The position numbers and the translations under genes were made by a program. A stretch of 64,000 bases of DNA, from the IMG/VR virus record IMGVR_UViG_3300042261_001929, positions 1-64,000 of that record. The stretch is one strand, 5' to 3'. Numbering within the stretch: position 1 is the first letter of the stretch; each line of letters begins with the position of its first letter. Of the stretch, positions 27,940 to 57,553 are shown one piece after another. The notes under the pieces were generated by a model. It was not told where the DNA came from. It ran no database searches and saw only the letters and a program-made list of their open reading frames with translations. Source of the DNA: a virus.

Positions 27940-29586
27940 TTATCTTATTTTACTAGGTAAGGTAATTCTCCTGTCCCTTCTTGCTGTATAGAGCCCTTGT
28001 AATCGTGATGATGGACTTTCAACCTTTGCTATCATCTGGGATTGTGGTCTTGAAAACAACTTTTGCATGTCCTCATCCTTGACAACGTAAGGATTCATAC
28101 TTGGTAATTTTGGAATGTTCAATTTAATCCTACCATTGAAATATAATATAGCATAGACTAAACAATCTAATTGATCATCATTTTTTCCATTTGGGAAGTC
28201 ACAAACTTCGATTAAAAAATCATCAGACCAATGGTGGGCATTTGGGTTTGGAATAAAAATATGTCCTGACTCACAATCAGGAGCAGCGGCCATTGCTCTA
28301 ATTTCCTTAGACTTTCCACCTGGTGGTAGCTCAACTATTCCTGGTATTTCATGTTTCAGCATTGACATTATTGCCGGACCATTACCTTTATCTTCCACAA
28401 GTTTTTTTCGAGCCTCTGGCCATCGATTTGACAAAATCTTAAACTGTTTCAAAGTTTCTGCAAAGTCTCCTTGACCCCTATATTGCGCCAATAGATACTT
28501 ATCAATCCCCTGTCTACCCCAAATTTGGCCAACGTTGAAATCACTCTTTTCTTTTACTGCTAAATCCCAGACTTGTACAATTTCATCCATATTAGAAGCT
28601 AAATCATGCAAATCCTCTTCTCCATTATAATTAAAGTTTTGGAACCAATCCCTTTCAAAATAAGTACCGGCACTGGCTATCGGATTTTGTTGCATAAGAG
28701 CTGCCCAATCATAAGGCCCCATAACCGACCTCGTAGCAATCAAAGATTCCATAGAAAATCTTTCCGGCCATAACGGTTCTCCAACCTGTCTAGGATCTTC
28801 TAAACATAGTGGTTCCTCAGCTATCATAGGGAAACTGACTACTACCCACTGATCAGCTCTGGGATCATTTTTTGCCAACTCCAACAATCTTCCAGCCAAA
28901 TCCTTTGAAGACCATCTTGTAAGTGTTAACAAAATCCTTGAATCGTCATCCATTCTTCTTGTATAAAACGTGCTAGTATACCAATCCCAAAGCGTACTCT
29001 GAACAGCATTACTCTCAGCGTCTTTCCTATCTTTTGTGGGATCATCGATAATTCCGTGCGTAAAACCCATACCAGTGATACCACCGCCTACACCACTACA
29101 CTTGTAAATACCCTTTCTACCAACTATCTCAAAATTTTCAGTATTTCTCATATAAGCATTACCAGACGTAACTGTCCTAACGGATCTTCCCGATAGTGTT
29201 GTCTCTGGAAAAACTTTCTTGTACTCAGGGCTATCAATAACTCTTTGCACATCTCTATTCATTTTAGTAGCAAGATCCATACCATAACTTGTCGCGATTA
29301 TGCTTGCGTCAGGATTGTGCCCAAAAATCCAAGCCGGTAGCCTTCTAGAAACAAGCTCACTTTTTCCCGACCTCGGAGGCATGAATACCATTAGCCTCTT
29401 GATATCCCCAAAAGCCCATCTCTCCAAATATCGGCAAATCACTTCATGATGCCAATTGACCATATACCTCGGAAACGTATACGTAGTAAAATCCCTTAAA
29501 TGCAAATATGCTTTCCTGATCAAAATCTCATCCAATGTAAATCTTGGTACATAAAAACCATTTCGTTTTTCACTATTTTCTTCCAT
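27940..29586 (-). CDS. terL: Terminase large subunit
   Basis: Walker A MPPRSGKS, Walker B IIDDP, TRW motif, nuclease motifs WDLA, VEDKGNG, NDDQLD. Confidence 0.95.
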   Translation of the reverse strand: MEENSEKRNGFYVPRFTLDEILIRKAYLHLRDFTTYTFPRYMVNWHHEVICRYLERWAFGDIKRLMVFMPPRSGKSELVSRRLPAWIFGHNPDASIIATSYGMDLATKMNRDVQRVIDSPEYKKVFPETTLSGRSVRTVTSGNAYMRNTENFEIVGRKGIYKCSGVGGGITGMGFTHGIIDDPTKDRKDAESNAVQSTLWDWYTSTFYTRRMDDDSRILLTLTRWSSKDLAGRLLELAKNDPRADQWVVVSFPMIAEEPLCLEDPRQVGEPLWPERFSMESLIATRSVMGPYDWAALMQQNPIASAGTYFERDWFQNFNYNGEEDLHDLASNMDEIVQVWDLAVKEKSDFNVGQIWGRQGIDKYLLAQYRGQGDFAETLKQFKILSNRWPEARKKLVEDKGNGPAIMSMLKHEIPGIVELPPGGKSKEIRAMAAAPDCESGHIFIPNPNAHHWSDDFLIEVCDFPNGKNDDQLDCLVYAILYFNGRIKLNIPKLPSMNPYVVKDEDMQKLFSRPQSQMIAKVESPSSRLQGLYTARRDRRITLPSKIR

Positions 29587-35253: not shown

Positions 35254-36639
35254 CTACTCTTTCATCAGTCTTTCCCTTATCTCATCAAAGGTTATGGTCC
35301 TAACGATTTTGCCATTATCGAATACGGTTTCGAGTACATCCTCACCAACAGCATTCAGTGGCACGGTCTTGTATGTACCATCAACCTTGACGAGCTTCAT
35401 CAAGCCTGCCTTAGACCTCTTTGCGCGGCTGGTAATTGGATCTTTGTATACATCTCTCCACTGACCATCCACCTTTGCAGCACAGCACTTAAAGGCGAAC
35501 TGCATCGTATCCCGATTCAATTTCTGTAACAGCGCGCCGCCCATGCCAAACGCGATATTATCAATGCTCCAACCAGCGTGCTTCATGGCACCCAATATAG
35601 CATTGATGAGATCCTTGTCTACACCATCACCTTGAATTAAGCGAACGTGCGGATCAAGCACCTTGTAACCCTTATCATTTACAGTGAAACCAAACTTTTC
35701 ACCCAAAGTTTCCAAGCAGGTCATCACAACTTCCAATGGGTTACCACTATCAGGACGAACCACGAGTGTGCCATTACGATTCATGACATCATTCTTCAAC
35801 GCGCCGCCCCAGATGTCGCGGCATGCCGCGAATATATCCCATGTATCGGACACACAAGCAATTACACCATTCGGGTACTTCTGCAACATATTTCTCATTG
35901 CATCGGTTTGGCCATCTCTGAGCCACGCGCTCATTGTGGAATGCTCAGACGCTGGAATAGAGAAGCCCGCCATCTTGGCACCATAGTATTCCCTTGCCAT
36001 CCTAAGAGCCGTCATTGTATCCGTGCCTAAGAAGCTCAGCAGGTGAGCAGAACCACCGATAGCAGCGGACTCTACAGAGGAAACACCCCTAAAGCCGAAG
36101 TCATGCAGCTTGAATGGTACACCACCCTTATCGCCGGTCTCCTCAGCATACCAGTCCATGAGCCTTCTTATCTCATAGCTCTGAGTCGCTACCGTACATG
36201 GATACCACAATTGTACAAGTATGGTCTCCAGCCAAGATGTCAGCCACGGAACTCTTGGATCAGTATTTTCGACAGTCATGAGCACATTCTGTACTGGAAT
36301 CTTGGAACCTTCAGGTACCGCTCTGATCTGTACAGGGAGAGCACCATTATATTCATCTAAGATGTACTCCCAACCCTCGCGATTGAAGACACCCTGACCC
36401 ATATGAGCTGTGACTATTTCGTCACCCTCATCAATCTTCTTCTGAGTCACAGCCTTACCAGCAAGGTACTTCTCCAGAATATACTGGAGGCCATAGAACA
36501 CCGTGTAAGGTGCCCATCTACCACTTCTTGCCTCAAAATAAGAAGCAACGAACTGAGTACCCGCTGGATAAAGCGGTGCATGGGAATGCTTATAACTGTC
36601 GGTCAAGTCCAATACAAACTCGTTGTTTTCTTTCATCAT
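35254..36639 (-). CDS. nadV: Nicotinamide phosphoribosyltransferase (NAMPT)
   Basis: TDSYKHSH, LHDFGFRG, SIPASEHS, VSDTWD, VRPDSG, IQGDG, AFGMGG, FAFKC. Confidence 0.93.
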   Translation of the reverse strand: MMKENNEFVLDLTDSYKHSHAPLYPAGTQFVASYFEARSGRWAPYTVFYGLQYILEKYLAGKAVTQKKIDEGDEIVTAHMGQGVFNREGWEYILDEYNGALPVQIRAVPEGSKIPVQNVLMTVENTDPRVPWLTSWLETILVQLWYPCTVATQSYEIRRLMDWYAEETGDKGGVPFKLHDFGFRGVSSVESAAIGGSAHLLSFLGTDTMTALRMAREYYGAKMAGFSIPASEHSTMSAWLRDGQTDAMRNMLQKYPNGVIACVSDTWDIFAACRDIWGGALKNDVMNRNGTLVVRPDSGNPLEVVMTCLETLGEKFGFTVNDKGYKVLDPHVRLIQGDGVDKDLINAILGAMKHAGWSIDNIAFGMGGALLQKLNRDTMQFAFKCCAAKVDGQWRDVYKDPITSRAKRSKAGLMKLVKVDGTYKTVPLNAVGEDVLETVFDNGKIVRTITFDEIRERLMKE

Positions 36640-39990: not shown

Positions 39991-40187
39991 AAAACAAAAT
40001 ACCTTTTTTACTTAAAGCCCTTGTAATATGGATACTTGCAGCATATTGTACGTCACTATTCTCCGATTTCTCATTCCAAGAGATATTTGTAAAGGTAGGT
40101 TTCGTGATGTTGGCAATTGTTATTGAAATTATCATAATAATATCCACATTGATTTACGGAACACGCCACCACAAATACGAAGAGTAA
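39975..40187 (+). CDS. Small membrane protein
   Basis: Two TM stretches. Confidence 0.45.
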   Translation: MGDSMKNKIPFLLKALVIWILAAYCTSLFSDFSFQEIFVKVGFVMLAIVIEIIIIISTLIYGTRHHKYEE

Positions 40188-40379
40188 TGCGGGGCTATAC
40201 TAATATATCAAACCTACAATATACTTTAAAAAATAAAAATCAGTGATCCTTTTTTATTTTTTGCTCTTCAATTTCGATATCACCAATTGTTGAGACAATG
40301 ATATCCAGTTCTGAATGGTCCCTAATTTCACCACCATCCAGTTCAATATTTTTTAAATCAAATCCTCTCTTACTCATAT

Positions 40380-41403
40380 TTAGTACCTCAACAGCGCACC
40401 GATTCCACCAAAAATTTTCTCTAATTGAGCGCCTTCCTCAAAACCAGAGTCGATGTACTCTATTTTTGTACCATAGGCAACAGATTCGTTTTCTAATCCT
40501 TTATCTACATTTGATAACAAAAGCGTGTCAACTTTTCCATTTCTCAGCTCTTCCAAGACATTTTTCCCATAAGAAACGCGATCATCATTAGCTAGCCGTC
40601 TGAAAAACGTGCTCATAAGCTTCCTTTGTTTAACTAGCTCTGATTCAGCAAGCAACTCTCCAGCATTACCAATAGTCTCTTTAATGCCCTGAACACCAAC
40701 ATAACCGGTATCAATAACACCAAGAATCTTCTTGCGCAGCTCGTGATGTAAGTATTCACCAAGATAAAACTCATTCTTAGTAAGTCCAGGACCACTGATT
40801 ATAATACCAGCAAGATCCTCATCCAAAAGAACTTTATCAATTTTTTCCGCAGAGGATTTATACCACGCGATGATAGCAAGATCCCTATTTTTATCAAATC
40901 TCCTTTGGGACTGTCCACCCCTATCTTGTTTTGATGGAACAATGCTATCTTCATGCAATTTGGTCTCTACATGAACACCTTGTAAAATCGCGAGGTCCAT
41001 TTCGTGCAAATCAATGCATACAATAGCATATTTTACACCCTTGTCAATCATGCTATCAATTGGAGAAAAATCAAACTTGCTTCCGCATCGATAAATTATA
41101 CTCGATAATGGCTTTGGAACCTCAATAATTTCCGATATCCAACCATCAGATGTAGGCCCAACAAATATAACCACGTCTCCAGAGGCCATTTTTAGCCTCT
41201 CTAAGGCACTTTTTATTCCGGATGTAACAGAGTTCCTAGTGACCCTAGATTTTATGTTTGAAGCCTTACCAAGCTCATCTCTGAGCATCCCAGATGCTTC
41301 GGGAACCTTTCCATTAGGTACGTATAGGCTGATCAGTTCTGTGCCCGACCCCTTCAAATTTCGCAGTCCGTCAAAGACAGTATTTCTTAGTTTCTGATAT
41401 CAT
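40380..41403 (-). CDS. prf1: Peptide chain release factor aRF1/eRF1, probably expressed via a +1 frameshift at CTT-TGA-C (41376-41370)
   Basis: GTELISLY, ASNIKS, YRCGSKF, GGQSQRRF, FGGIGALLRY. GAGGTG SD and ATG at 41403 open a 10-codon ORF ending CTT TGA C; the +1 frame continues into the aRF1 ORF. Confidence 0.9.
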
Positions 41404-41546
41404 TACACACACCTCTGTTGTCGATTATTATCTCAAGTCCGTCTAAACTATTTGATCCATTTTTATATGGAATCCGAATATCCTTGATAAATGATGATCC
41501 AAACATATTATCCTCTAAAAATATGTACAGCCATTCTTAGGCTGCA

Positions 41547-41993
41547 TTACTCATCTATTGTTGTACTTTGCTGGCTACTGGTGCCCGCGTCCGCCTTCAC
41601 TTTTGCTGCAATGAGTCCCATAAAAATTGGTAGACGTTGATTGATGCTGTCTAGTGATTTAGCATCCTTACAATAGTTCGTCATGGATACAAATCCAACC
41701 AATGTATATTCCATGATAACGTTCTCATCCCCATCACAGACAGCAATTTTAATCTTATTTGTGTCGGCAGGCTTTATCAAGTAGATAAAGTACGTTATGT
41801 TCTTTTCAACAATGCTGAATACTGATGTAGTATCCATAAAACTTATCCCAATTGGGACGACTTTTTCCCAACGCTCTACAGAGTTCACTAAACGACTTAG
41901 TGATACTTCTCTTTCGCTTTGATCAGTGTTAAACATAGCCGAATCCTCAGCTTCTCGCACTTCAGCCAATATCTTTTCAGTGTCTTCTATCAT
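41547..41993 (-). CDS. Hypothetical protein
   Basis: 148 aa; overlaps the neighbouring stop. Confidence 0.55.
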   Translation of the reverse strand: MIEDTEKILAEVREAEDSAMFNTDQSEREVSLSRLVNSVERWEKVVPIGISFMDTTSVFSIVEKNITYFIYLIKPADTNKIKIAVCDGDENVIMEYTLVGFVSMTNYCKDAKSLDSINQRLPIFMGLIAAKVKADAGTSSQQSTTIDE

Positions 41994-42301
41994 ATATATT
42001 GCTCCATAAATCTGGATCTGATTTTTTGAATATCATCAAGAACATGCTCTTCGGCATATTTCTTTACCGCTGCTTTATATCTAGCTTTGTCCTCTTCATC
42101 ATCACGATAATATCCCCGGATGTCATTGTTCTTGGTGTAATAGGCATACAACAATTTTGCATAGGCCCTTTCTATATATTCCAACATGTCAGCCATGTCG
42201 TCCGCTACGTCAGGAAGCTCACAGCGATATCCCTCACCACACGCTCCCTCGAATCCGAGGGATCTTGCCTCTTTTACCAGAGGATTTTCCGGAATTTCCA
42301 T
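41990..42301 (-). CDS. Hypothetical protein
   Basis: 103 aa ORF. Confidence 0.55.
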   Translation of the reverse strand: MEIPENPLVKEARSLGFEGACGEGYRCELPDVADDMADMLEYIERAYAKLLYAYYTKNNDIRGYYRDDEEDKARYKAAVKKYAEEHVLDDIQKIRSRFMEQYI

Positions 42302-45813: not shown

Positions 45814-45887
45814 AGCCGCTAGAGGTATTCGAACCCTCGACCTATCGGTTACTGGCCGATCGCTCTATCCAACTGAGCTATAGCGGC
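45814..45887 (-). tRNA. tRNA-Thr(AGT)-like gene, atypical (C33, A34, G53:A61)
   Basis: Acceptor GCCGCTA/TAGCGGC; anticodon loop CCAGTAA; T loop TTCGAAT. Confidence 0.75.
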
Positions 45888-45898
45888 AAAATGATTTT

Positions 45899-46261
45899 TT
45901 AGATGTTCTCTACCATCATCGTACCTGATATCCCTTTTCCTACAGCACTAACGGAATAAACATCTATACTCTTAAACAATTTTAATATATTTCCTATGTT
46001 TATCCACTCTTTTGTTCCGTCTTTGCACTCAACCAATACAAAGTCGTACCACGATCCGATCACAACACCTTCATAATATGACATGAAATGTGGATTTGTT
46101 GCCCATTCTCCAGCTCGATCCTTGTCATCCGTTACATGCCCATACCCAACCGTGTTCCCTATCAGATATGAGCTTGAATTTATATCGGAAGATGCTGATC
46201 CCACTGCTAACAATAAAATCAGCACACCGATGCATAAATACATTCTCATTCTCATACACAT
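45899..46261 (-). CDS. Secreted hypothetical protein
   Basis: N-terminal signal peptide. Confidence 0.55.
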   Translation of the reverse strand: MCMRMRMYLCIGVLILLLAVGSASSDINSSSYLIGNTVGYGHVTDDKDRAGEWATNPHFMSYYEGVVIGSWYDFVLVECKDGTKEWINIGNILKLFKSIDVYSVSAVGKGISGTMMVENI

Positions 46262-46324
46262 GGGATTCTCCTAATCATATTTATACCTTTTGGTTCCCTG
46301 TTTGCCTGACTTCATGCCAAATAA

Positions 46325-46687
46325 TTACTCCCGCTTGACGCCCAAAAGTACATATTTCACAAATCGACCCGCAGAACAGAGTACAATGCCCAAGAAGAGC
46401 CACATGAAACCAAATATTATAGCAAGAGCTGGACCCGTCATAGCCAAACCCGCGATGGTAATTAGTATATAGTTATACTTTAGACCTATCGCGAACACAA
46501 TAAATCCAATGATCGTGAACGATAATAGTTCTAGGGTGTAGTCGCCTTCCTTCGTATCGAGGTTTCGAATGCTTCTTGGAATATGGGCAGCTCCGAGAAA
46601 TATGGCATCGATTAATCCCAACAGTCCTAAGATTGCGAATATTATTAGCGCACTATTGACCACGAGTATGTCAATTGTCCTGTCCAT
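46325..46687 (-). CDS. Membrane protein
   Basis: Three to four hydrophobic segments. Confidence 0.55.
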   Translation of the reverse strand: MDRTIDILVVNSALIIFAILGLLGLIDAIFLGAAHIPRSIRNLDTKEGDYTLELLSFTIIGFIVFAIGLKYNYILITIAGLAMTGPALAIIFGFMWLFLGIVLCSAGRFVKYVLLGVKRE

Positions 46688-46694
46688 ATCTATA

Positions 46695-47042
46695 TCACCA
46701 CTTTACTATATAAACAAAGTTTGGTTTACCAATTTTCGTCATGAAATCGATCATATGTCTAGCTCCCTTTGATCTTCCATCCCAGATCGCGACAAGAGCA
46801 TCCGCATATTTTCCCATTTCCTCATTTCTTTTTATGCCCGCAGATCTACCATACTTATTCCAATCCGCAGGCATTCTCTTTATTGGTATTCCTAGTATAT
46901 CAGCGTATTGCTCACCCAACTGATCAGCGCCGCGAGCAGTTCCCGAAACAACCTCATCTATAACAAAATCGGATAACCGGACGGCCTCTACTACATCATC
47001 GAGGTTCTTTATGGTCCGGCTGCCCGCTATAATAACTTTCAT
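46695..47042 (-). CDS. YspA/DUF2493-type SLOG family protein
   Basis: IIAGSR, VSGTARGAD, PADW.KYG.SAG..RN..M, WDG.SKG..HM. Confidence 0.85.
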   Translation of the reverse strand: MKVIIAGSRTIKNLDDVVEAVRLSDFVIDEVVSGTARGADQLGEQYADILGIPIKRMPADWNKYGRSAGIKRNEEMGKYADALVAIWDGRSKGARHMIDFMTKIGKPNFVYIVKW

Positions 47043-47374
47043 AGCAATTTTAAGTCCTTGGTAAGCTCCTTTGTTTCATCGGTCGCCCTGAAACCCAAAC
47101 ATGTTATAGTTCCTGGGGCTACTTCGGTCAGCCCAGCATCCTCAATATATTCACCATCAATCTCACCATGATCAATCATATCAATGAATTTCTTAAAATC
47201 TTCAGACTGAGCTTTCAATATGATTGCCTTTCCCAATACCGAATATTTCCTTGCTAATTTCATCGCGACATGACTTACCTGTGACGAAATTTTACCCTTT
47301 CTCATCCCAAGACCACTATCAATTATATATACATAAGTTATACTTAGATCCACTATTCCCCTCATGACTACCAC
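47039..47374 (-). CDS. pth2: Peptidyl-tRNA hydrolase Pth2 (archaeal/eukaryotic type)
   Basis: LGMRKGKISSQVSH, KAIILK, EDAGLTEVAPGTITCLG. Confidence 0.85.
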   Translation of the reverse strand: MVVMRGIVDLSITYVYIIDSGLGMRKGKISSQVSHVAMKLARKYSVLGKAIILKAQSEDFKKFIDMIDHGEIDGEYIEDAGLTEVAPGTITCLGFRATDETKELTKDLKLL

Positions 47375-47605
47375 CTATTCCAATGCTACGCTATATCCAT
47401 CGATAAAACCATTGACCCACGCACTCTTGATATCGAGGTCCAGTGTTGATATTTTTTCCTTTTCCTGAATTATACACATAACGAATGCTCCGGCCTTTTT
47501 TCTTTTCTCGATGCGCTGGTTCTTCCCTAACGGGAAATGCCTAATAATTTCGTTCCCTAAATCAGGATCATAGAATGGCTTCCCTATAAAATATTCAATC
47601 TCCAT
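47375..47605 (-). CDS. Hypothetical protein
   Basis: 76 aa ORF at the head of the gene run. Confidence 0.45.
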   Translation of the reverse strand: MEIEYFIGKPFYDPDLGNEIIRHFPLGKNQRIEKRKKAGAFVMCIIQEKEKISTLDLDIKSAWVNGFIDGYSVALE

Positions 47606-47711
47606 GAACCATGATTTTCTTCCTTAATATATAAGCTTTTGGTATTTGCAAAACCCTTAAATATCATCAAATACGATAGTAAGCCCGACACGCATAAGAG
47701 GAGGTTAATAT

Positions 47712-47954
47712 ATGAAGTATGAAGATAAATACCCGAACGCGAAGCATCTTGAAGAAGTTGCTCCATCATTAGTAAAATTTTTACCATCTGAGGAATGCCT
47801 TATATGTGGTGCCCCTACTACCTTTGGTGATATCGATTTTGGAGCACCTTTTTGCTCTGAGGAATGTTTTCAAGCAATGTGGGAGCAATATATTCGCGAT
47901 TCGTGCAGCACCACAGGATATCCAGATGAAAAGGTGATCATCCATGATAATTGA
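47712..47954 (+). CDS. Small zinc-finger protein
   Basis: CLICG...FCSEEC; GAGG SD. Confidence 0.55.
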   Translation: MKYEDKYPNAKHLEEVAPSLVKFLPSEECLICGAPTTFGDIDFGAPFCSEECFQAMWEQYIRDSCSTTGYPDEKVIIHDN

Positions 47955-48285
47955 GTTATCAAACTGTTACTTAAAAATAAAATGGGTGGGGACACAAGAG
48001 GAGCTTGATATTAGAGATTGGTGTTATAGCTCTCACAAGCATCCGTCTAAAAAGAAGACCCAGCCCCTGAAGCATACACACAGCAAGTCACCCAATAAGA
48101 ATATATTGAAGGATCACACAACTTCGATTCGGTATTGCTTAGACTGTTGTAAAAAAACCATGTTCACACACAAAAAAGGCAACAAACATAGCAAATGCAG
48201 TGAATGTGGTAGCACCAGAAGCTCTAGAGGAAAACTAACTACAAAAATGAATGCAGTGTTTCATCCCAATCAGAGACGGGATTAA
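47944..48285 (+). CDS. Zinc-ribbon protein
   Basis: CLDC...HSKCSECG; GGTGA SD. Confidence 0.55.
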   Translation: MIIELSNCYLKIKWVGTQEELDIRDWCYSSHKHPSKKKTQPLKHTHSKSPNKNILKDHTTSIRYCLDCCKKTMFTHKKGNKHSKCSECGSTRSSRGKLTTKMNAVFHPNQRRD

Positions 48286-48288
48286 ATA

Positions 48289-48879
48289 CTAATTTTCATA
48301 TCTTTTATTTTTCCAAAGTCGCTTGCTAACTTGTCGATCTTCGCGCATAGGATAGGATCTTATTTTTCGCTCTTGTTCGCCTGCATCCTCTTGAAGCTCT
48401 TCTATTTCCGCTTCGATGTCTTCAAGCTGATCTTCCCATAATTTAATAGTTGCCTCTTCCTCACTCCCCTCCACAACAAACGTTTCGCGATATACTTCCA
48501 TAATTTTTTCAACAGATGTATAATCGTTTAAATATACAATACGAGAGGATGTAACATTCGGCAACTTTACACTATTAACCTTTCTTTTTCTTAACTTATC
48601 TTTTATATTATTATAGATATCTATTGGTATTGAAGCGAACTTATTATCATAACTATAGACAAAAACCTCATCAATGCTACGACATCTTATACAAAATTGA
48701 ATCTGATTTGCAAGCCCACCATCAAGGTTACTTTGAATGCTTTTTAACTTCCTGCCACATACCAAACAGCAATCATAAGGTTTGACATCTTCAGAAATTT
48801 TCGAAAAAAAGGATTTCAGGGCATCACCTTCTGACATTCGCTGGGCATGATACACATACGGACGTTGGTAGTGTATCAC
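48289..48879 (-). CDS. Hypothetical protein with zinc ribbon and coiled coil
   Basis: CLVCGRKL...CIRC. Confidence 0.5.
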   Translation of the reverse strand: MIHYQRPYVYHAQRMSEGDALKSFFSKISEDVKPYDCCLVCGRKLKSIQSNLDGGLANQIQFCIRCRSIDEVFVYSYDNKFASIPIDIYNNIKDKLRKRKVNSVKLPNVTSSRIVYLNDYTSVEKIMEVYRETFVVEGSEEEATIKLWEDQLEDIEAEIEELQEDAGEQERKIRSYPMREDRQVSKRLWKNKRYEN

Positions 48880-49210
48880 GATATCCAGTTACCCGATGCT
48901 GGGCGATCTGTCTTGTTTTGTTGTTCTCTTCGTACTGAGACACGTTTATACAGAAGGTATGTCCATTTACTTGTGGTATTATCCTATCCTTTTCTATCTC
49001 ACCAATATCGCAATCCCTTACCCCGACCTTATGAACTACGATATTAATCGTGGAATCCCCAACATGCTTTCGTACAATGAAGTCTAACTCCTTTCCATTG
49101 AAGTCAATGTACAATCTTCTTGGGTCCGTTACTTCTCTACCACGGCGGATAGCATGTTTCAAGTCCTCGGCCTCAAAGTTTCCTATATATGTCTTCACCA
49201 TGATTCTCAC
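48824..49210 (-). CDS. Hypothetical protein, paralogue of 49207..49608
   Basis: Shared Y.G...A.D...AI...RLY....GK.L.F...D.DIG..E.D...VNG. Confidence 0.6.
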   Translation of the reverse strand: MRIMVKTYIGNFEAEDLKHAIRRGREVTDPRRLYIDFNGKELDFIVRKHVGDSTINIVVHKVGVRDCDIGEIEKDRIIPQVNGHTFCINVSQYEENNKTRQIAQHRVTGYRDTLPTSVCVSCPANVRR

Positions 49211-49608
49211 CTATCATCGCCCACCGGACAGGCAATACAATGTCCATACCCCATCATTTCCTCAATTTCAGTTCTTCTGTTTCTATACCCTCGAATGGCC
49301 TCGTTATCAATATCCCTTCCTCGGATAGCGTTTTCGAAAGCTGGGATACTAAGACACACTGGAACTCCATTAACAGTATCAAGCTCGGCATCGCCAATGT
49401 CTGAGTCATTTACCGCAATCTCGCGAACTACGTGCTCTTTGATTGCATTAGATGCGTCTCTGGTTCTTCCTACGAATTGCAGTTTCTTTCCTTCCATTCT
49501 TAGGTACAACCGCTTTGCATTCGGATTTATATTTTTCATTGTTTTGATTGCATTATCGACATCACTTGCTCTGACATCACCGAGATACATTCTTACCTTA
49601 GACATCAT
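49207..49608 (-). CDS. Hypothetical protein, paralogue of 48824..49210
   Basis: Shares the motif above; GGTGA SD. Confidence 0.6.
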   Translation of the reverse strand: MMSKVRMYLGDVRASDVDNAIKTMKNINPNAKRLYLRMEGKKLQFVGRTRDASNAIKEHVVREIAVNDSDIGDAELDTVNGVPVCLSIPAFENAIRGRDIDNEAIRGYRNRRTEIEEMMGYGHCIACPVGDDR

Positions 49609-49658
49609 TTCTTTTCACCAAATCCAGAGGTGTATCAGTTCCTATTTATAGGTTTTGC

Positions 49659-50096
49659 TCACCAAAGGCCCCATGCCAATATACCGGCGCGGCCCATTAA
49701 TCTTTTATTCACTACATCCCTGATTATATCTTCATCAAATCTTCCATCACCATCAATAACAGGATACGTTGAAAATGGTCCATGCTCCCTAAATTTAACA
49801 GTATTTCCACAAATGATGTCTACAAATGCTTCGCGACCCTTTTCATCTAACTGAGATAAAATCAATTCAAACGCCTTCACAATATCAGCTTCTTGTGCTG
49901 CTGCTCTCGCGCATTTCTCAGAGCAGTAAATGTCTTCATCATAGATAAAGTCATATCCACAGCTCACACAATGATGATATTTTCCACCACAGTTTTGACA
50001 CACATTATTCTGTTCCATTTTTTTCTCCCCACACAATTCTAAGATATGCAGTACTAATCCGTGATAAAAATTCAGAGTAAGGTATAATATTTCCAT
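49659..50096 (-). CDS. Cys-rich hypothetical protein (likely starts at MEQNN)
   Basis: CQNCG..YH.C.SC...YCSEKC. Confidence 0.5.
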   Translation of the reverse strand: MEILYLTLNFYHGLVLHILELCGEKKMEQNNVCQNCGGKYHHCVSCGYDFIYDEDIYCSEKCARAAAQEADIVKAFELILSQLDEKGREAFVDIICGNTVKFREHGPFSTYPVIDGDGRFDEDIIRDVVNKRLMGRAGILAWGLW

Positions 50097-50286
50097 CTTT
50101 TTCTCTGCATGTTATAAAATCATGATCAAAAAACAGGTGAAACTCTACATCCTCTTTTGAATAAAATTCATCCCCACACGCTTCACATATGAAACACCGG
50201 TCGTCATCCGCTAATGTCTCATAAGCCTCACTGATTGCTATTTCCATTGGATCTTTTATGACTCCAATTCTTTCACTGTCTTCCAT
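50005..50286 (-). CDS. C2H2 zinc-finger protein
   Basis: FICEACGDEFYSKEDVEFHLFFDH. Confidence 0.55.
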   Translation of the reverse strand: MEDSERIGVIKDPMEIAISEAYETLADDDRCFICEACGDEFYSKEDVEFHLFFDHDFITCREKDGNIIPYSEFLSRISTAYLRIVWGEKNGTE

Positions 50287-50740
50287 TTCATATCCCTTAT
50301 ATTTTCAGCTTCATGAATTAATTCATTTTCATAAGGACCATAATATTTTAGGTCCAATATTCTGCTTCGCTTAACAAACGATTCACAGTTGCGATTTTCA
50401 ACTTCAACTAAAATTCCTGTATGCCTTCTATACTCAAATGATTGATAATCAAATTCAGTTACATATAAAATCCAGATGGAGTCGTCATCTATTTCGTCTC
50501 TCCATATTTCTTTGAGAGAGTAACCATCGCTCTCCCAAAGAAAAATTAGTCCACTCAATCTCAACTGTGATTTAGAAGTTTGGTCTCTTGTATTCGGCAT
50601 CATTGTATCCCAACTCCTCAAACCAATTCTTCCCAAACCTTTCTTCAAGCAGTTTTACTTCCCTTCTGCTAAGGTCTTCAGGAAGCAAACCACCATTCAT
50701 GTTTAACAAAAGGTTCGTTGTATCATCAATTTCCAATATT

Positions 50741-51019
50741 CTATCTCCTGCTAGCTCTCTGTTTTTCAACCAAATCAAACATTGGACTTATCACTTTAGG
50801 CACATTAATCTCGATGATCGTTTTATCACTTTTCATCTTATTTAACATGTATTGATGAATAAATGACCTCGTTGTTGATTCTATTCCATCAAAATCAACA
50901 ACGACAATACTTGCGTCTGAGTTGTTTATATCTTCATTGAAAACGTCATCAGCACTGCCTCTAAATGCTAAGTTTGGCGATACCTTCTCTCTTAGTAAAA
51001 TTTTAATTTCATTAACCAT
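50741..51019 (-). CDS. STAS-like DUF4325-type protein
   Basis: L..R.SA..VF...VVVDFDGIE.TTRSF.HQY. Confidence 0.65.
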   Translation of the reverse strand: MVNEIKILLREKVSPNLAFRGSADDVFNEDINNSDASIVVVDFDGIESTTRSFIHQYMLNKMKSDKTIIEINVPKVISPMFDLVEKQRASRR

Positions 51020-51042
51020 AATTTATCACACAAAAAAATGAT

Positions 51043-51471
51043 TTAAGCCTGTGCTCGACGGCTCGTGCTTAAACCTCTTCCCGCTTCAAGAATTGGCAAC
51101 TGTGCTTCCGTTGGTACATATACAATTTCTTTGTCTGCATCAGTTCCGATCTTCTCTGTTATCCAGAGATAGTCCAAATACACTGAATTGTTCTTAAGAG
51201 AGTCACCTATAATTTGATTTGACTGTGCAACTCCTCTTGCCCTCGTTATTTCCGCCTGTGCTAAATAAGTTGCGCTTTCGTTTTTTGCATTTGCCTCAGT
51301 CACAGCAATCATACGAGAGCTTTGGGCCTCTGCCAATCTTGCCTTTCCTGCTTGCTCAGACGACCATACGTTATACAATGGTAGTGCAATCGCGAGCGCA
51401 ACCAAGACGCCGATTACGACCGCGACCGTACCAATTATCATTCCCGTTGATACTTCACCATTTGTTTTCAT
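51043..51471 (-). CDS. SPFH/stomatin-like membrane protein, short form
   Basis: TM helix then AEITRARGVAQSNQIIGDSL...YL.YLWI...YVPTEAQLPILEAGR. Confidence 0.7.
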   Translation of the reverse strand: MKTNGEVSTGMIIGTVAVVIGVLVALAIALPLYNVWSSEQAGKARLAEAQSSRMIAVTEANAKNESATYLAQAEITRARGVAQSNQIIGDSLKNNSVYLDYLWITEKIGTDADKEIVYVPTEAQLPILEAGRGLSTSRRAQA

Positions 51472-53650
51472 CTATATCGCTTTCCTTTTCCAAATACTTG
51501 TTACCCAACAATTTTATCACGGAATCAATATGTATGCTCAATAGTGCTTCGCGCACACCTACGGATTCACCTGATCTCATCTTGAATAATATTGGACTAT
51601 ATTTATACTTTACTGCTTTTAAAGCGAACTCTTTCTGATCATCGATATCACATATTCCCTTGTATGTTTCCTCGATTTCACGTACAAGTGACTCATACAC
51701 ACATTTTGCATATTCAAACTTGTCAATAAACATCGGGAAATATGCTAACAGTTCATCGCTTTCGTTTCTCCGTACTACATCCATTATTTTTCTTGGTGTG
51801 ATGCCATTTTTCAAATGGTGTAGGGCCACGTATTTAGGGGCCTTTAACTTTACCCTGTTGAAGTCCTTGTCCCTTATAACAAAACCTTCATACTTTGCGG
51901 GGTCGAGCTTTGCACATGCCTCTACAACCTCGTCTAGGGTGCCTAAATCGAAGGATCTTACGATATCCCAATCATATTGAAGCCCGATCTCTGGATCGAC
52001 TTCTTTGAGGGTTTTAAGGCTTCTGACACCATGCAATACCAGCTTTGGATCATCATATGATACCACGATCTGATTTAGGGGTGTACACATCTCAAACATG
52101 TAGGTATATCCTTCTTCAGGCAATTTATACCCCATTTTGGTAAATAGTTTCCAGAACATATGGCTAAATGTGTCCTTTCCCATTGGTGTCATACTAGCCA
52201 TACCATCGGGAGTACCCGATGTTCCTGCATACCATATTCCATCGTAATTATATAACTGCATCATTGAATTATGTACAAATATTCCATTTGCCATATAGTT
52301 CCCTGTCGTTGTTTGTATATCATATCCCACCCTTCCTGCCGGAAATTCTTTTTTGGTCAGTTTGGGATAAGATATACTGTTCACTTCTATTTTTATGGGT
52401 ACATATTCTTCCTTTCTACTTAATGTATCCATGATATATGGCACGTTTTGAAACCCCTTTGGTAACTTATAACGCAACCCATGTGGTATATATGGAGATA
52501 TAGACTCCCAGAATCTATTTATTTCTCCACAACGTCCTGAATTTATTCGAATGTTCCACCCTTTCGATTGATATACAGTAACATCAACTGAAAATGTTTT
52601 CCTAAGATGATCTGCCAATCTATTGACATCATTTTCAGCAAACCCATTTGTCGCAAATAAGGCACGATCCGCCTGTTTGCTATTATGAGCTAAACTCCCA
52701 TCATCCATGTACCACTTCGCGAATGAAAATGCATCCATCCAATCAATATTAGATGGTATGCACTTTTTTCTTCCATTTGGGTACCACTCATCTCTTAACG
52801 TTTTTAATATCCGATATGTCTTTGAAGTAATTTGGGTTATATCAGAACCATATCCAGATATGATCTTTCGTGAACTGAGATATGAATCACCCAAGTATTG
52901 TTTTGCCATATCCTCGAAATCGGGATATTTTGATAAGTGCCCCTCTTGAAATTTACAGTTTGTACCATTATAAATTATGCTTCCATCACCGAGCAGCGAT
53001 GATCGTATATAATGCATAGCTGCCTTGTGTGGTGACAACAACACAGATGTTAATATATCGTCTGTTTGGATATTACTTGCTAATTTGTAGCATCCGTTAT
53101 TATAAATTTCATGATTTGTTGTGACCCGAAGTCTCTTAGATGACATATTTTTATGTGGTCCGGGTCTGTCTTTTAAATTGATGTCTACCCAATTTGTTCT
53201 TCCCTTAGACTTTGACCTTCCAATAACATATGTTGGTACGGGATTTCCGTTAGAGTCAATACCAATTAGCTTCGGAGACAGTGATTTGTTAACGATGTCA
53301 CCAATTTTAACTATGCCACCATCCCATAAATTCAATGACGTGTCGTAATAAAAACAACCATCAAGCTTTTCTAATATGCTCGCGGTACTCCAGTCTATAG
53401 GAGCAGCATGTCCCTCATGCACATTGAAGAATTTCTTATAAGGATAAGATATTACTCTCCAATCCTTATCGCGATCCAATATGATCCCTCTACATTCTTG
53501 TACTAAAGGATCGCCCAATGGTGAATCGATTTGACCATACTTAAATGAAATCAAATTCGGATGAGAGGTATGGGATCTGGATTTTATTCCATACTTAATC
53601 CCCAGATCTCCAATAGAACCAGACCGCAAAAATTCTTGAATTTTCAACAT
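51455..53650 (-). CDS. T4 Rnl1-like RNA ligase containing an intein
   Basis: ECRGIIL, YPYKKFFN, EKLDG|S, FEM, EGFV, KLK motifs. Confidence 0.88.
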   Translation of the reverse strand: MLKIQEFLRSGSIGDLGIKYGIKSRSHTSHPNLISFKYGQIDSPLGDPLVQECRGIILDRDKDWRVISYPYKKFFNVHEGHAAPIDWSTASILEKLDGCFYYDTSLNLWDGGIVKIGDIVNKSLSPKLIGIDSNGNPVPTYVIGRSKSKGRTNWVDINLKDRPGPHKNMSSKRLRVTTNHEIYNNGCYKLASNIQTDDILTSVLLSPHKAAMHYIRSSLLGDGSIIYNGTNCKFQEGHLSKYPDFEDMAKQYLGDSYLSSRKIISGYGSDITQITSKTYRILKTLRDEWYPNGRKKCIPSNIDWMDAFSFAKWYMDDGSLAHNSKQADRALFATNGFAENDVNRLADHLRKTFSVDVTVYQSKGWNIRINSGRCGEINRFWESISPYIPHGLRYKLPKGFQNVPYIMDTLSRKEEYVPIKIEVNSISYPKLTKKEFPAGRVGYDIQTTTGNYMANGIFVHNSMMQLYNYDGIWYAGTSGTPDGMASMTPMGKDTFSHMFWKLFTKMGYKLPEEGYTYMFEMCTPLNQIVVSYDDPKLVLHGVRSLKTLKEVDPEIGLQYDWDIVRSFDLGTLDEVVEACAKLDPAKYEGFVIRDKDFNRVKLKAPKYVALHHLKNGITPRKIMDVVRRNESDELLAYFPMFIDKFEYAKCVYESLVREIEETYKGICDIDDQKEFALKAVKYKYSPILFKMRSGESVGVREALLSIHIDSVIKLLGNKYLEKESDIDENKW
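52268..53356 (-). mobile_element. Intein (363 aa) with LAGLIDADG homing endonuclease
   Basis: Starts CFYYDT after EKLDG and ends FVHN|S. Block B VTTNH; LAGLIDADG blocks LLGDGS and WYMDDG. Confidence 0.92.
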
Positions 53651-54036
53651 CTTCGTCCTCTCCTCTCCTCATCAAATAACTTCTTTATCTCAGTCCGTGC
53701 TATAATTGAAATTATAGATGCAACAACAACTACACATGCCATTATATATGAACCTATCGATCGGGCATATGCATCCCCATACAAACAAGATGATATTGCT
53801 AACACGCTGAATGATCCTGTGGCAATAAGACCCAGCCATGCCATTATTAAATCACTATCGCTATATAAATAGGACGGCCTGAATAACATTTGGAGCAAGG
53901 CAATAACAAAAATCGCCGTACCAACGCATAGTAAAACAGCGGATTCACAAAATGCTGCAAAAAATATGATTAAGATGGCTATCCCTACAGTGCTGGGTGC
54001 ATCATTTCGCGATTTATCAAGAGCAAAAATTTTCAT
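53644..54036 (-). CDS. Four-TM membrane protein
   Basis: Hydrophobic segments; GAGGAG SD. Confidence 0.55.
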   Translation of the reverse strand: MKIFALDKSRNDAPSTVGIAILIIFFAAFCESAVLLCVGTAIFVIALLQMLFRPSYLYSDSDLIMAWLGLIATGSFSVLAISSCLYGDAYARSIGSYIMACVVVVASIISIIARTEIKKLFDEERRGRRC

Positions 54037-54063
54037 TTTCTTCTCCTCAATATGAAAACGGTA

Positions 54064-54399
54064 TCAATCTTTCCAAAGGCGTTCTTCCAACTCTTGGATG
54101 TCTTTGTCAATCTTCTCTTGAAACTCTTTCGACTTAAAATACTTTCCAAATCCGGATTCATTCCACCATTTTTCTCTATCTTCGCGATATTTCATCAGCT
54201 CAGGATAAGACAAATATCTTCTACCCCTGCAAGCATGGCACCTCTCAGGTATCCCGCCAATAAAATTTGGATCGTTAGGAGTCTGGCATATCATGTCAGC
54301 AATGCTCCCACCCTCATCCCCCGTACCCTCACACGGAATCAATCTAAGCGTATCGTCATTGATCATCATCTTTTCTCCGATAATAGTATATGTAATCAA
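54064..54399 (-). CDS. Hypothetical protein with DnaJ-like Cys motifs
   Basis: CEGTG...CHACRG. Confidence 0.5.
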   Translation of the reverse strand: MITYTIIGEKMMINDDTLRLIPCEGTGDEGGSIADMICQTPNDPNFIGGIPERCHACRGRRYLSYPELMKYREDREKWWNESGFGKYFKSKEFQEKIDKDIQELEERLWKD

Positions 54400-54865
54400 C
54401 TTTTGAAGGTGTTACAATAATGGCCTCGTCCTCACCCTCAATAACCAGCAAACCATCAGATCTAAAACCGGCTGCGACTTCCCTCGCAGAAAGCTTTGGC
54501 ATCTTGATGGTAAAACTATCATCATCTGTATACACATCGACATACGGTATGCCCCTACTTTGTGGTATTATATTTCCCTCATCACACTTGTTAATGTCTC
54601 TTTTGAGATAGGTTCTATATGCCCGCAGTCTCAAAACATCATTATCAATAGATATTAATGAGGTGTACACGTCTTTAGGTATTCTTATCCATGCTTTGTA
54701 ACACTTCGTGAACTCGATATCAAACTTGCTACTCTTGTCGTTCCACCGAAGGTAGGCATAATTACAATCACAAGACCCCGTTCCACCCATCGACATTTCG
54801 TTATCAATTTCCGTACCTGTGGCCAGTCTTCCACAGCTCTCACAAACAAAAAATTTTTCTTCCAT
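54356..54865 (-). CDS. Hypothetical protein with zinc ribbon
   Basis: CESCG...CDC. Confidence 0.55.
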   Translation of the reverse strand: MEEKFFVCESCGRLATGTEIDNEMSMGGTGSCDCNYAYLRWNDKSSKFDIEFTKCYKAWIRIPKDVYTSLISIDNDVLRLRAYRTYLKRDINKCDEGNIIPQSRGIPYVDVYTDDDSFTIKMPKLSAREVAAGFRSDGLLVIEGEDEAIIVTPSKVDYIYYYRRKDDDQ

Positions 54866-54881
54866 AATAATACATTCCCCT

Positions 54882-55292
54882 CTAATACAACTTAGAAATC
54901 TCTTCTAACCGTTGTCTATCAAGCTCACTCAATGCGGTCTTTTCCCAAAAGTCGAGAAGCGCACTGGGTGTTACGATTTTTAATAGCAAGTTGTCTCTAA
55001 TATCAGCAACCTTACGTTCGGTATCATCATCGTAGCCCCATTCAGTGTATTCACTTAGGAGTTTATGAACTTCATACGCACTATCAGATCCGCTCATAGA
55101 AAAATGTCTAAGAATATCCGATAGGCGCAACCCAATTGGAAGCTTTTTATCAAGTGACTTAAAATCCCTGAATTGATCTTTGATCTTCTCTCTTTCTTTG
55201 CGGTATCGAGCATTGATCTCAACTTCCTTGTCTGTCCTTCGTCTGATTATTTCGGCTTTCAGATCGGAACACGAATAACTACTAAGATCCAT
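54882..55292 (-). CDS. Hypothetical protein, paralogue of 55308..55697
   Basis: Shared DLSSYSCSDL...FRDFK..D.K.P.GL.L.D...DFWEK..L.EL...KLY. Confidence 0.65.
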   Translation of the reverse strand: MDLSSYSCSDLKAEIIRRRTDKEVEINARYRKEREKIKDQFRDFKSLDKKLPIGLRLSDILRHFSMSGSDSAYEVHKLLSEYTEWGYDDDTERKVADIRDNLLLKIVTPSALLDFWEKTALSELDRQRLEEISKLY

Positions 55293-55307
55293 TTTAATTC
55301 TTCCTAA

Positions 55308-55697
55308 TCAATATAACTTAACAATTTCGTTCTTTCGCTTTCTTTCAAGCTCTTCCAGAACCGATTTCTCCCAAAAATCTAGGATAAGTTTCGGTGTTAT
55401 TTCTTTGAATCGAATGCTTATAAAGGTTTTTGATGTCGATCGATCAAAGTTTTCAGTATATTCAACCAGATGACTTTCGAGATAGTGTCTTAGAATATCA
55501 TTGTTAAACTCTGGCAGATCTAACAAGGAAAGACCCTCCGGCATTTTTCTATCAATCTTCTTGAAATCGCGAAACGCCTCTAATATCCTGTTTTTCTCCA
55601 TAGAAAATTTAGCATTGATCTCTTCTTCTTTTGCCTTTCTACGGGCCACAATTTCCTTCTGTAGATCAGAACACGAATAACTACTAAGATCGACCAT
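55308..55697 (-). CDS. Hypothetical protein, paralogue of 54882..55292
   Basis: Shares the motif above. Confidence 0.65.
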   Translation of the reverse strand: MVDLSSYSCSDLQKEIVARRKAKEEEINAKFSMEKNRILEAFRDFKKIDRKMPEGLSLLDLPEFNNDILRHYLESHLVEYTENFDRSTSKTFISIRFKEITPKLILDFWEKSVLEELERKRKNEIVKLY

Positions 55698-55699
55698 AA

Positions 55700-56149
55700 C
55701 TACCTTACCTCCGAATTAAATTCCATGAGTTCGTTGAGTTTAAATACCATAACACTGTATTGATTAAGCAGCTCTAACCCCTTAATATCACTTGGATATT
55801 CCTCTAAATATATTACTGATCTTATTCCAGACTGTAATATCATTTTGGAACAGTGATAGCAGGGTTGTAATGTAGTATACATTGAAGATCCAATAGTTGA
55901 AATACCATACATCGCGCATGAAATGATAGCGTTTTCTTCTGCATGTAATGCGTGACACTCCCATAAGTTCCCAGGATCTTTTTCACATTTCTCACAATGG
56001 GCGACTCCGCTAGGCACGCCGTTATAACCAAGGGCAATAACTCGCTTATCCTGAACTATGGCAGTTCCCACCTTTCTAGATTGACAATTGCTTTTCATCG
56101 CAGCAACTTTTGCAATCTCCATAAAATAATTGTGCCAAGAAATCGTCAT
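55700..56149 (-). CDS. dCMP deaminase
   Basis: YFMEIA...SNC..RKVG...GYNG.PSG..HC...HAEENAI...PCYHC. Confidence 0.88.
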   Translation of the reverse strand: MTISWHNYFMEIAKVAAMKSNCQSRKVGTAIVQDKRVIALGYNGVPSGVAHCEKCEKDPGNLWECHALHAEENAIISCAMYGISTIGSSMYTTLQPCYHCSKMILQSGIRSVIYLEEYPSDIKGLELLNQYSVMVFKLNELMEFNSEVR

Positions 56150-56244
56150 GCTTGGATGATGTATCGTGGAAATATTTATAGTTTTTGGTATTCTATTATT
56201 AGAAAATTATTATAAAAAAAGATTTAGAAGGTAAAAGAGTTTCT

Positions 56245-57012
56245 TCACCTTCTTAGTGGCCGTGGACAATTTGTGCTATAGACGACCCTCTTTTCCGGCA
56301 ACGGCTTCGGTATGTACTCATTCTCAGAGACAATCAATCTGAGGTAAATGGTAGTTGCAGGTTCGTTATGCTCCAAGTCGTCAACAGTGACAAAGTTTTG
56401 GTCCGAGTGACCACTCAATCCTGTTCCAGCTACACTCAATGATTCAGATTGAGGGATAGCACAGCTCTTTGATACACATCTTGATCTCGTAAGAGATGCC
56501 GACTTTATACCACTATAGCCACCATCATGACAACAGTTATAACTCAAACTCACATGATTGCTGAACGGGTCATAGTCAGTATGATCACTGGTAGTGATAT
56601 TGAACGGTGAGATTGGCTGTTCATAGAAGTTATTGATCACGATTGGTGCTCTATAAACTTCTTTTACTTTTCCTGGACGGAAAACCGCCTTTATGACACC
56701 GGTTTCACTATCAAACTCACACAACTCAGCCCGATTCCCTTCCCATGAATTTGCCTTATATGCTGTGAACCTTCCGCTATCATTAGCAGACCTCTCAAGA
56801 TACATGGTCTGACCATATCGCAATCGATAGGTTCCGATGAACTTCCCGTCAATGTAAATATCGACATCGGCAGGTTGACATCCAAACGGTCCCTTGTGAC
56901 TGTTATGTAGTCTTAAGCTGTACTGTTGCCCGTGATTCATTTTTACGTAGCCATCACAGGTCTCTTCTTTACATCCAGATACACTGAATCTGAATCCATT
57001 TAGTTCTGACAT
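56245..57012 (-). CDS. Hypothetical protein
   Basis: YSLRLHN...IDGK...LER...GRF...GVIKAVF...AGTGLSGHSDQNF. Confidence 0.6.
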   Translation of the reverse strand: MSELNGFRFSVSGCKEETCDGYVKMNHGQQYSLRLHNSHKGPFGCQPADVDIYIDGKFIGTYRLRYGQTMYLERSANDSGRFTAYKANSWEGNRAELCEFDSETGVIKAVFRPGKVKEVYRAPIVINNFYEQPISPFNITTSDHTDYDPFSNHVSLSYNCCHDGGYSGIKSASLTRSRCVSKSCAIPQSESLSVAGTGLSGHSDQNFVTVDDLEHNEPATTIYLRLIVSENEYIPKPLPEKRVVYSTNCPRPLRR

Positions 57013-57126
57013 TTTTTTATTCTCCCTAGAAAGAACCTTTTCGGTTCAATCGGATTTCGAAAGAAAACCGAGAATCACATCCTCGATTTTCAAAGTGAGG
57101 TTTCCGAGTCGGACGGAACAAAACCA

Positions 57127-57342
57127 CTATCCCCACACCACCTTGAAGATTTCATAAAGTGGAATCAGCATCATAATCGATATGCATACAATCGCGAATG
57201 CTGCAATCCAGTATACAAAATCTCTTGTTTCGGTAGCACATCGTATTATTAACTTCGTGCCAATGAATATATAGTAATATGCCACGGTGACAAGTATGAC
57301 TCCCATAGCACACGCAATTTGCTCCATCATATTCATGCCCAT
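57127..57342 (-). CDS. Small membrane protein
   Basis: Two TM segments. Confidence 0.45.
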   Translation of the reverse strand: MGMNMMEQIACAMGVILVTVAYYYIFIGTKLIIRCATETRDFVYWIAAFAIVCISIMMLIPLYEIFKVVWG

Positions 57343-57553
57343 ACGATACTCAATACTTTTCCTGACAGTATCAGGAGAACCAAGTCAAAGGCCACCATGA
57401 GGGTGAATACCAATAATCGGATCATTCCGAGTCCTTGTCCCATCCTGTTCATGAGATATATTATATACACAAATACGATATTCATCAATATGACACATAT
57501 CGATGCGAATATTGCATAGCCAATGAACATATCTACCTCTTTTTGGTTTTTTA

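Follow-up and report, generated by a model that had tools for sequence, protein, structure and literature searches.

Release-factor autoregulation through a frameshift at the factor's own stop codon is textbook recoding, established for bacterial release factor 2 (RF2) and two giant-virus factors only. In prfB, the RF2 gene, the site lies near codon 26, and the Leu tRNA re-pairs from CUU to UUU. Eukaryotic +1 sites that operate without a Shine-Dalgarno (SD) element include CUU AGG C of yeast Ty1, whose A-site codon is a rare sense codon, and UCC UGA U of antizyme, where polyamines are sensed and a pseudoknot lies downstream. The prfB consensus is YTT_TRA_C (PMC3711429; see also PMC12421855). 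The release factors of Mimivirus (R726) and Megavirus (mg280), both of the eRF1/aRF1 type, need a +1 shift at CUU UAG C / CUU UAA C (Jeudy 2012, PMC3521657), as shown by expression in E. coli and mass spectrometry, and read-through of an upstream UGA is required as well (PMC3521657). Recoding in archaea comprises an established −1 frameshift in S. solfataricus fucA1 and suggested cases in tail genes of tailed haloarchaeal viruses, one of which, in the myovirus HSTV-2, may be a +1 event (PMC8211752). Here we examine a 64,000-nucleotide stretch of DNA (the window), comprising the first 64 kb of the 77.9-kb IMG/VR virus record IMGVR_UViG_3300042261_001929, in which a gene for aRF1, the class-I release factor of the archaeal/eukaryotic type, is interrupted after ten codons by CTT TGA C and continues in the +1 frame. 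The same break occurs in two relatives, L002 and L003, and we consider a conserved programmed +1 ribosomal frameshift at YUU-U-stop-C to be its probable explanation.

The window site, CTT TGA C, is identical to that of E. coli prfB, and all three viral sites fit YTT_TRA_C. Further parallels are the early position, a CUU-to-UUU slip of the P-site Leu-tRNA (predicted for the viral gene), a stop codon that would be read by the encoded factor (for aRF1, as judged from its motifs), and the proposed logic of negative feedback. Unlike prfB, which carries an SD-like stimulator 3 nucleotides upstream of the shift codon, the viral genes have none, and their product is unrelated to RF2 in fold and origin, placing them outside the prfB family. 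Whereas prfB sites use UGA (rarely UAA), read by RF2, the window clade interchanges UGA and UAG, as expected of an omnipotent factor. The prfB system is bacterial, while the virus described here presumably depends on an archaeal host. With Ty1 and antizyme, the site shares a slippery P-site codon followed by a slowly decoded A-site codon, as well as, by the proposed mechanism, the sensing of a trans-acting factor's concentration; the CUU...C context is shared with Ty1. It differs from Ty1 in using a stop instead of a sense codon and from antizyme in that no downstream element was detected.

The giant-virus genes offer a second set of parallels. There, too, a virus encodes an eRF1/aRF1-type factor with NIKS, YxCxxxF, and GGQ motifs and a +1 shift at CUU-stop-C, the stop differs between orthologues while the site is kept, a stop followed by C is rare at genuine gene ends, and autoregulation has been proposed, as we propose it for the window aRF1. 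In contrast to Mimivirus and Megavirus, which are giant viruses of amoebae (Nucleocytoviricota), the virus described here is tailed and presumably uses archaeal ribosomes. Its gene has no read-through stop: between the ATG and the shift stop, the zero frame contains 8-10 sense codons and no other stop. The site lies at codons 9-11 in the window, L002, and L003, but further into the coding region in the giant viruses, by reported product sizes (PMC3521657). The giant-virus frameshift was demonstrated experimentally in E. coli, while the window site is known from sequence comparison. A separate origin is very likely because the proteins are only distantly related (the viral clade is ~43% identical to cellular aRF1s). 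The archaeal cases in the 2021 review involve neither a release factor, a stop-dependent +1 site, nor termination feedback, and the review contains no aRF1 case (PMC8211752).

The preliminary description of this locus had presented such a frameshift as undescribed for aRF1. That claim was too broad: work published in 2012 had already demonstrated +1 frameshifting at CUU-stop-C in the eRF1/aRF1-type factors of Mimivirus and Megavirus (PMC3521657). The new features are a tailed virus presumably using archaeal translation, a site at codons 9-11, the absence of both an internal SD and a read-through stop, and the interchangeability of UGA with UAG and of CUU with UUU. A literature search, whose incomplete coverage is no proof of absence, found no paper on aRF1 genes in archaeal tailed viruses or on frameshifting in them.

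Results

The gene lies on the minus strand. An SD-like GAGGTG (41410..41415) and a 6-nucleotide spacer, TGTGTA, precede the zero-frame ATG (41401-41403), which opens a frame of ten codons (ATG ATA TCA GAA ACT AAG AAA TAC TGT CTT; 41374..41403). The encoded leader, MISETKKYCL, would form the N-terminus of the full-length protein. It ends in the heptamer CTT TGA C (41370..41376), composed of a Leu codon whose P-site tRNA could re-pair on TTT, the stop TGA (41371-41373), and C as the fourth base (41370). The aRF1 body then occupies 330 codons of the +1 frame, from GAC (Asp11) to Tyr340 (40383..41372), with matches to Pfam eRF1_1, eRF1_2, and eRF1_3, and terminates at a true stop, TAA, followed by A (TAA at 40380..40382). 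Re-reading the bases on the minus strand reproduced exactly the anatomy given in the preliminary description (GAGGTG, 6 nucleotides, ATG, ten codons, CTT TGA C, and aRF1 in the +1 frame). Its statements that the main frame is closed directly upstream by TAA TGA and that the sole alternative start is a TTG lacking an SD are likewise correct. This TTG (41355..41357, minus strand), a rival initiation site, is the only canonical +1-frame start ahead of the GTELISLY motif; it lies 14 nucleotides past the TGA, with no SD in the preceding 16 nucleotides. Genome-wide, SD-like 4-mers precede 48% of the ATG open reading frames (ORFs) of at least 100 residues versus 10.5% of random positions, AGGTG being the commonest form.

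Joining the two frames yields a product of 340 residues (P0001) that begins MISETKKYCL-DGLRNLKGSGTELISLY. All three Pfam domains score above their curated cut-offs (eRF1_2, 1.2e-25; eRF1_3, 8e-12; eRF1_1, 6.8e-07). The stop-codon recognition motif NIKS is found at residues 49-52 (41247..41258, within ASNIKS at 47-52), YxCxxxF spans Y104-F110 (41073..41093), and the GGQ motif of peptidyl-tRNA hydrolysis spans G162-Q164 (40911..40919), all on the minus strand. The columns of these motifs, including Y104, C106, F110, G162, G163, and Q164, are invariant in an alignment of viral and cellular relatives. A C-terminal FEEG...GG..A.LRY block is also conserved. The clade lacks the ~45-residue domain-3 insert of the 415-residue cellular aRF1s, as do some aRF1s of 362-370 residues in the alignment. 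The gene probably encodes a functional, shortened aRF1 of a tailed virus.

Two relatives carry the same interruption. In L002, from a 76.6-kb IMG/VR tailed-virus contig, GGTGAATTAA is followed by ATG ACC ATT AAC AAC TAC TGT CTT TAG C (leader MTINNYCL), and a Baseplate J gene precedes aRF1. In L003, from a 1.6-kb peat-metagenome contig, GGTGAATCGA is followed by ATG GAC GAC GAA AAT AGC AAC TAT TGT TTT TAG C (leader MDDENSNYCF). Both have GGTGA 5 nucleotides ahead of the ATG, and in both the +1 frame runs on as aRF1 for 332-333 codons. The break thus falls at a common codon in all three genes: TAC TGT CTT TGA C (window), TAC TGT CTT TAG C (L002), and TAT TGT TTT TAG C (L003). It comes 8-10 codons after an ATG with a GGTG-type SD and is followed by a +1 ORF of 330-333 codons. 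Because the same codon, YTT, an immediate stop, and then C recur in two relatives at ~60% identity, the arrangement is more than chance. The three genes share ~60% protein identity, yet at only 20% of third codon positions do all three agree. Their +1 frames are long, open, and constrained at the protein level, and we therefore take them to be translated. The sole initiation signal conserved across the three genes is the SD-backed zero-frame ATG.

The preliminary description held that a +1 slip at CTT-T would give a normal-looking aRF1 N-terminus, and the alignment bears this out for the window gene and both relatives. The joined products align without gaps to unbroken relatives. At position −10 from the G of GTEL, the broken genes have L or F, P0011 and P0014 have F, and the unbroken relatives as a whole have F, L, V, or I; at position −9, the broken genes have D or S, and D and S are found in P0011 and P0014. 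This ungapped fit at both positions indicates that the broken allele corresponds to the unbroken allele plus one T.

The context of the site departs from that of ordinary gene ends. Among 104 ORFs of at least 100 residues in this genome, TAA, TGA, and TAG serve as stops 52, 33, and 19 times, so that all three are in ordinary use; a stop followed by C occurs at 13 of the 104 genuine ends, and TGA-C at 2 of 33. CTT or TTT immediately before the stop is found in none of 87 ATG ORFs of at least 100 residues, where codon usage would predict ~3.7. The codon after the slip ends in C in all three broken genes, although GAC makes up 25.5% of GAY and AGC ~30-43% of AGY, a coincidence with a rough chance of 0.03. 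The variation that the site does show (CUU or UUU, UGA or UAG, always C) fits preservation of +1 function, and re-pairing of UUU on UUU would be perfect. Both UGA and UAG would be readable if aRF1 reads all three stops, as its NIKS, YxCxxxF, and GGQ motifs suggest.

The bases at the break are reproducible. A 978-nucleotide contig from a different study (run X3, lake metagenome) covers 40872-41700 with no difference and no gap, and a 12.4-kb contig of the probable source sample likewise shows no difference or gap here; the agreement is between assembled contigs, in which minority variants would stay invisible. RNA-library contigs (X4, X5) span 226 nucleotides inside the gene, short of the shift site, and constitute a weak hint of transcription, as DNA carry-over is possible.

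A word-indexed search returned ~20 close relatives (51-62% identity, about 330-340 residues). These group separately from cellular aRF1s, whose identity is ~43% or less. In a library clustered at 50% identity, the clade comprises the window gene's own cluster and one other, and the family is therefore small. Reading at the DNA level covers the window gene, L002, L003, L004, and L005; P0005, P0006, P0008, P0012, and P0017-P0020 are represented by truncated gene calls alone. L004 (57% identity) is a continuous gene, and L005 is cut by the contig end. Nine clade members in addition to those with continuous N-termini carry N-terminally truncated gene calls. In the tree, L002 and L003 belong to a well-supported clade (95/98) whose remaining members are all truncated gene calls, as expected where gene callers find no start. 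The 344-codon ORF of L003, for example, is annotated as the 224-residue P0021. Public gene calls thus truncate frameshift-bearing aRF1s, and searches by length or N-terminus under-count the family. The switch characterizes particular sub-lineages rather than viral aRF1 as a whole.

Scans of IMG/VR with the protein, two alignments, and a DNA pattern based on GTELISLYVP returned one clade relative (the contig of L002/L042/L043), plus a giant-virus eRF1 and a distant match at 24%. A tblastn search of GenBank phages gave no match. Among the matches listed, a metagenome scan contributed L003, L004, and L005 as new clade members. A scan of genome contigs found only cellular aRF1s (at most 40% identity), and the cellular aRF1 loci inspected were all continuous ORFs with ordinary starts.

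Discussion

The sequence arrangement suggests the following mechanism. Ribosomes would start at the SD-backed ATG (41403) and translate ten codons before pausing, with CUU and its Leu-tRNA in the P site and UGA-C in the A site, where the context for termination is poor. When aRF1 activity, whether host or viral, is high, termination would release a decapeptide. When it is low, the P-site tRNA could slip by one base from CUU to UUU, GAC (Asp) would be read, and the 340-residue aRF1 would be made. Since the stop is read by the gene's own product, more termination activity should mean less output. Viral aRF1 synthesis would be self-limiting and highest when termination capacity is short; such negative feedback, with synthesis inversely dependent on termination activity, is plausible from the parallel with the known systems. 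That archaeal ribosomes slip at this site is inferred by analogy with prfB and Mimivirus R726.

Several observations weigh against a programmed frameshift. As the preliminary description remarked for the window gene, the internal SD of prfB is not evident: there is no G-rich element just upstream of the CTT, and none of the three genes has an SD-like or G-rich run beside the shift site (upstream sequences AAGAAATACTGT, AACAACTACTGT, and AGCAACTATTGT). A search for a stimulatory RNA structure gave a weak consensus fold (−7.8 kcal/mol over 125 columns), and no Rfam match was found in window 40000-42000. The broken genes verified at the DNA level number three (window, L002, and L003). The preliminary description had looked to relatives for recurrence of the break, which L002 and L003 provide as CTT or TTT followed by a stop rather than as random breaks; however, many relatives are continuous, among them nine clade members with uninterrupted N-termini (e.g., MLPVNELRELRGRGTEL and MIVFSRLKEVRGRGTEL), the closest relative, P0003, included. 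The window gene does not group with the L002/L003 clade but shares an unresolved polytomy with unbroken genes. A tree constrained to unite every break-carrying or truncated row is worse by 19.9 log-likelihood units (approximately unbiased test, p 0.074), and the break arose either by one gain followed by losses or by two gains. Archaea have demonstrated −1 frameshifting only, according to the 2021 review (PMC8211752).

A near-identical virus, on a 28.6-kb contig from another assembly, has its aRF1 in two pieces, P0122 and P0002. P0122 ends in ...CIDLH followed by GNGPRDFTRCSCRDQIA, and P0002 begins MDLAILQG, which fits one extra G after CAC (window 40997-41010, minus strand, ...TTG CAC GAA ATG GAC...). 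This split lies near codon 118 of the 325-codon TTG ORF, at about residue 133 of the joined product. Either the assembly is at fault here, or the allele is truly broken and shows that viruses can lose the gene. The stop on its own argues for design less strongly than might appear, because in unbroken relatives the junction residues are F or L followed by D, S, N, or K (codons beginning GA, AG, or AA), so that insertion of one T yields YTT-T-stop automatically. Finally, the N-terminus of the unbroken P0009 (MKELKGRATEL...) is just three residues longer than that of the product initiated at TTG 41357, and in the window's case a truncated protein from this TTG might work. The weight of the frameshift case rests on retention of the break over deep divergence and on the lack of an alternative start.

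The strongest of the rival explanations, though we judge it unlikely, is that the 10-codon frame is a regulatory upstream ORF and that aRF1, lacking its N-terminal helix, has its own start in the +1 frame, either TTG 41357 or a nearby non-canonical codon such as CTG that is reached by termination-reinitiation. The TTG sits only 14 nucleotides past the TGA, a CTG stands two codons past the junction in all three genes, and P0009, although unbroken, has a very short N-terminus. The TTG, which the preliminary description had named as a possible start, lacks an SD and has no counterpart in the relatives: L003 is without ATG, GTG, or TTG in its first 70 +1-frame codons, and the first +1-frame start of L002 comes 112 nucleotides past its ATG, beyond GTELITLYVP, and would remove this conserved strand. 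The CTG encodes a Leu conserved over aRF1s (the L of LxxL), and its conservation is thus explained by the protein. The zero-frame residues extend the ungapped alignment with unbroken relatives, and a plain upstream ORF would need neither a YTT-T slip codon nor a C every time. Less probable still is decay to a pseudogene, without a working factor, after a one-base insertion in a short T run. Insertions do occur at T runs, many relatives are unbroken, and the near-identical variant has a second frame break (P0122/P0002). Against this, three lineages whose synonymous sites are saturated (as the third-position identity indicates) retain 330-codon +1 frames, protein identity, and all motifs, the break coincides in codon and context among them, and the 226-nucleotide RNA-library contig hints weakly, given possible DNA carry-over, at expression.

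Mending of the frame ahead of translation, through slippage of RNA polymerase on the T run or through heterogeneity of the run's length in the virus population, is very improbable. The site does contain T3 (window and L002) or T5 (L003), and contigs cannot reveal minority variants. Productive transcriptional slippage is known from runs of about 8 or more, far longer than T3-T5; neither process explains why a stop and C directly follow the T run in all three genes, and the run has the same length in two independent assemblies. An error of sequencing or assembly, or an alternative code in which TGA is sense, has a negligible chance of being correct. The general error-proneness of metagenome assemblies is all that speaks for an error, and the indel that the preliminary description had allowed for is not supported: the bases agree between contigs of two studies, and relatives show the break again, which rules it out. 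An alternative genetic code is ruled out as well. If TGA or TAG were read as sense, translation would stay out of frame and meet more stops within ~20 codons, and TAA, TGA, and TAG all end long ORFs of the genome. We therefore retain the programmed +1 frameshift as the probable reading.

The window belongs to a tailed virus, as marked by a domain match to a T4-type large terminase (27940-29586), and a Mu F-like domain is present within an 1184-residue window protein. The genome has a G+C content of 39% and 19 tRNA genes. The host presumably uses archaeal translation and is of the methanogen type; an archaeal host is suggested because aRF1 is a release factor of the archaeal/eukaryotic type. 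Named cellular relatives of the window aRF1 include the methanogen-related or ANME-related (anaerobic methanotrophic archaea) Methanophagales, Methanoperedens, Methermicoccaceae, and Methanocellales. The window sequence is present in freshwater and lake assemblies, and its relative L003 comes from a peat metagenome. The large terminase gave no further host clue, as a protein atlas returned viral terminase clusters only, and no terminase match was found in the L002 record (54% complete). In tblastx comparisons, the flanks of L002, L003, and L004 had nothing in common with the window genome except the aRF1 gene.

The tRNA genes lie at 45814-63611 of the window and 65428-76272 of the genome and include Thr(AGT), Arg(ACG), Tyr(GTA), Cys(GCA), and Phe(GAA). 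Thr(AGT) and Arg(ACG) have A34 anticodons, which are unusual for archaea. The Tyr and Cys tRNAs match the two codons preceding the shift codon in all three broken genes, and Phe matches the shift codon of L003; no tRNA-Leu was found in the virus record, which is 56% complete. Just 5′ of the aRF1 start in L002 (2885-2945), a segment of ~56 nucleotides in all, GGAGCAA...GGTGG-TTCGATT-CCACT-ATGCTCCA, resembles a tRNA T arm and 3′ acceptor strand. ARAGORN calls no tRNA there, and the segment was not found (at most 2 mismatches) in 401 genomes of the phylum of a Methanocellaceae metagenome-assembled genome. Possible identities are a remnant of an attachment site and a tRNA-like minihelix. The sequence that follows it, CATATAAAA, occurs upstream of the window gene too (41455-41467).

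Other window genes extend this picture of the virus. An ORF of 731 residues (51455-53650, minus strand) encodes a T4-type RNA ligase domain with an inserted LAGLIDADG endonuclease domain, which may be an intein or a homing-endonuclease insertion. In the portal/MuF region, a protein of 1041 residues (15005-18130, minus strand) combines an ADP-ribosyltransferase exoenzyme domain (2.6e-21) with a weak C-terminal zinc-peptidase match and may be virion-delivered cargo. Genes for a nicotinamide/nicotinate phosphoribosyltransferase (NAMPT-type) and a ComF-like phosphoribosyltransferase (35254-36639 and 60178-60990, minus strand) suggest a virus-encoded NAD salvage module.

Conclusions

On balance, we lean toward the view that archaeal tailed viruses independently evolved, perhaps twice within one aRF1 clade, a stop-gated +1 frameshift like those of bacterial RF2 and mimivirus eRF1. 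If true, one regulatory solution would have arisen for the third time, and this would be the first release-factor-sensing +1 frameshift on archaeal ribosomes, achieved by a bare YUU-U-stop-C heptamer with no helper element. A conserved case on archaeal ribosomes would show that this minimal heptamer arises time and again wherever self-regulation is open to a release factor gene, and it would supply a natural, compact +1 cassette for studying frame maintenance and aRF1 competition on archaeal ribosomes. Viral aRF1s with the switch would be systematically mis-annotated, since gene callers truncate them, as in L003. The finding would also raise the question of why a tailed virus of archaea should need a termination factor of its own and, if the frameshift is real, would mean that these viruses actively manage host termination capacity.

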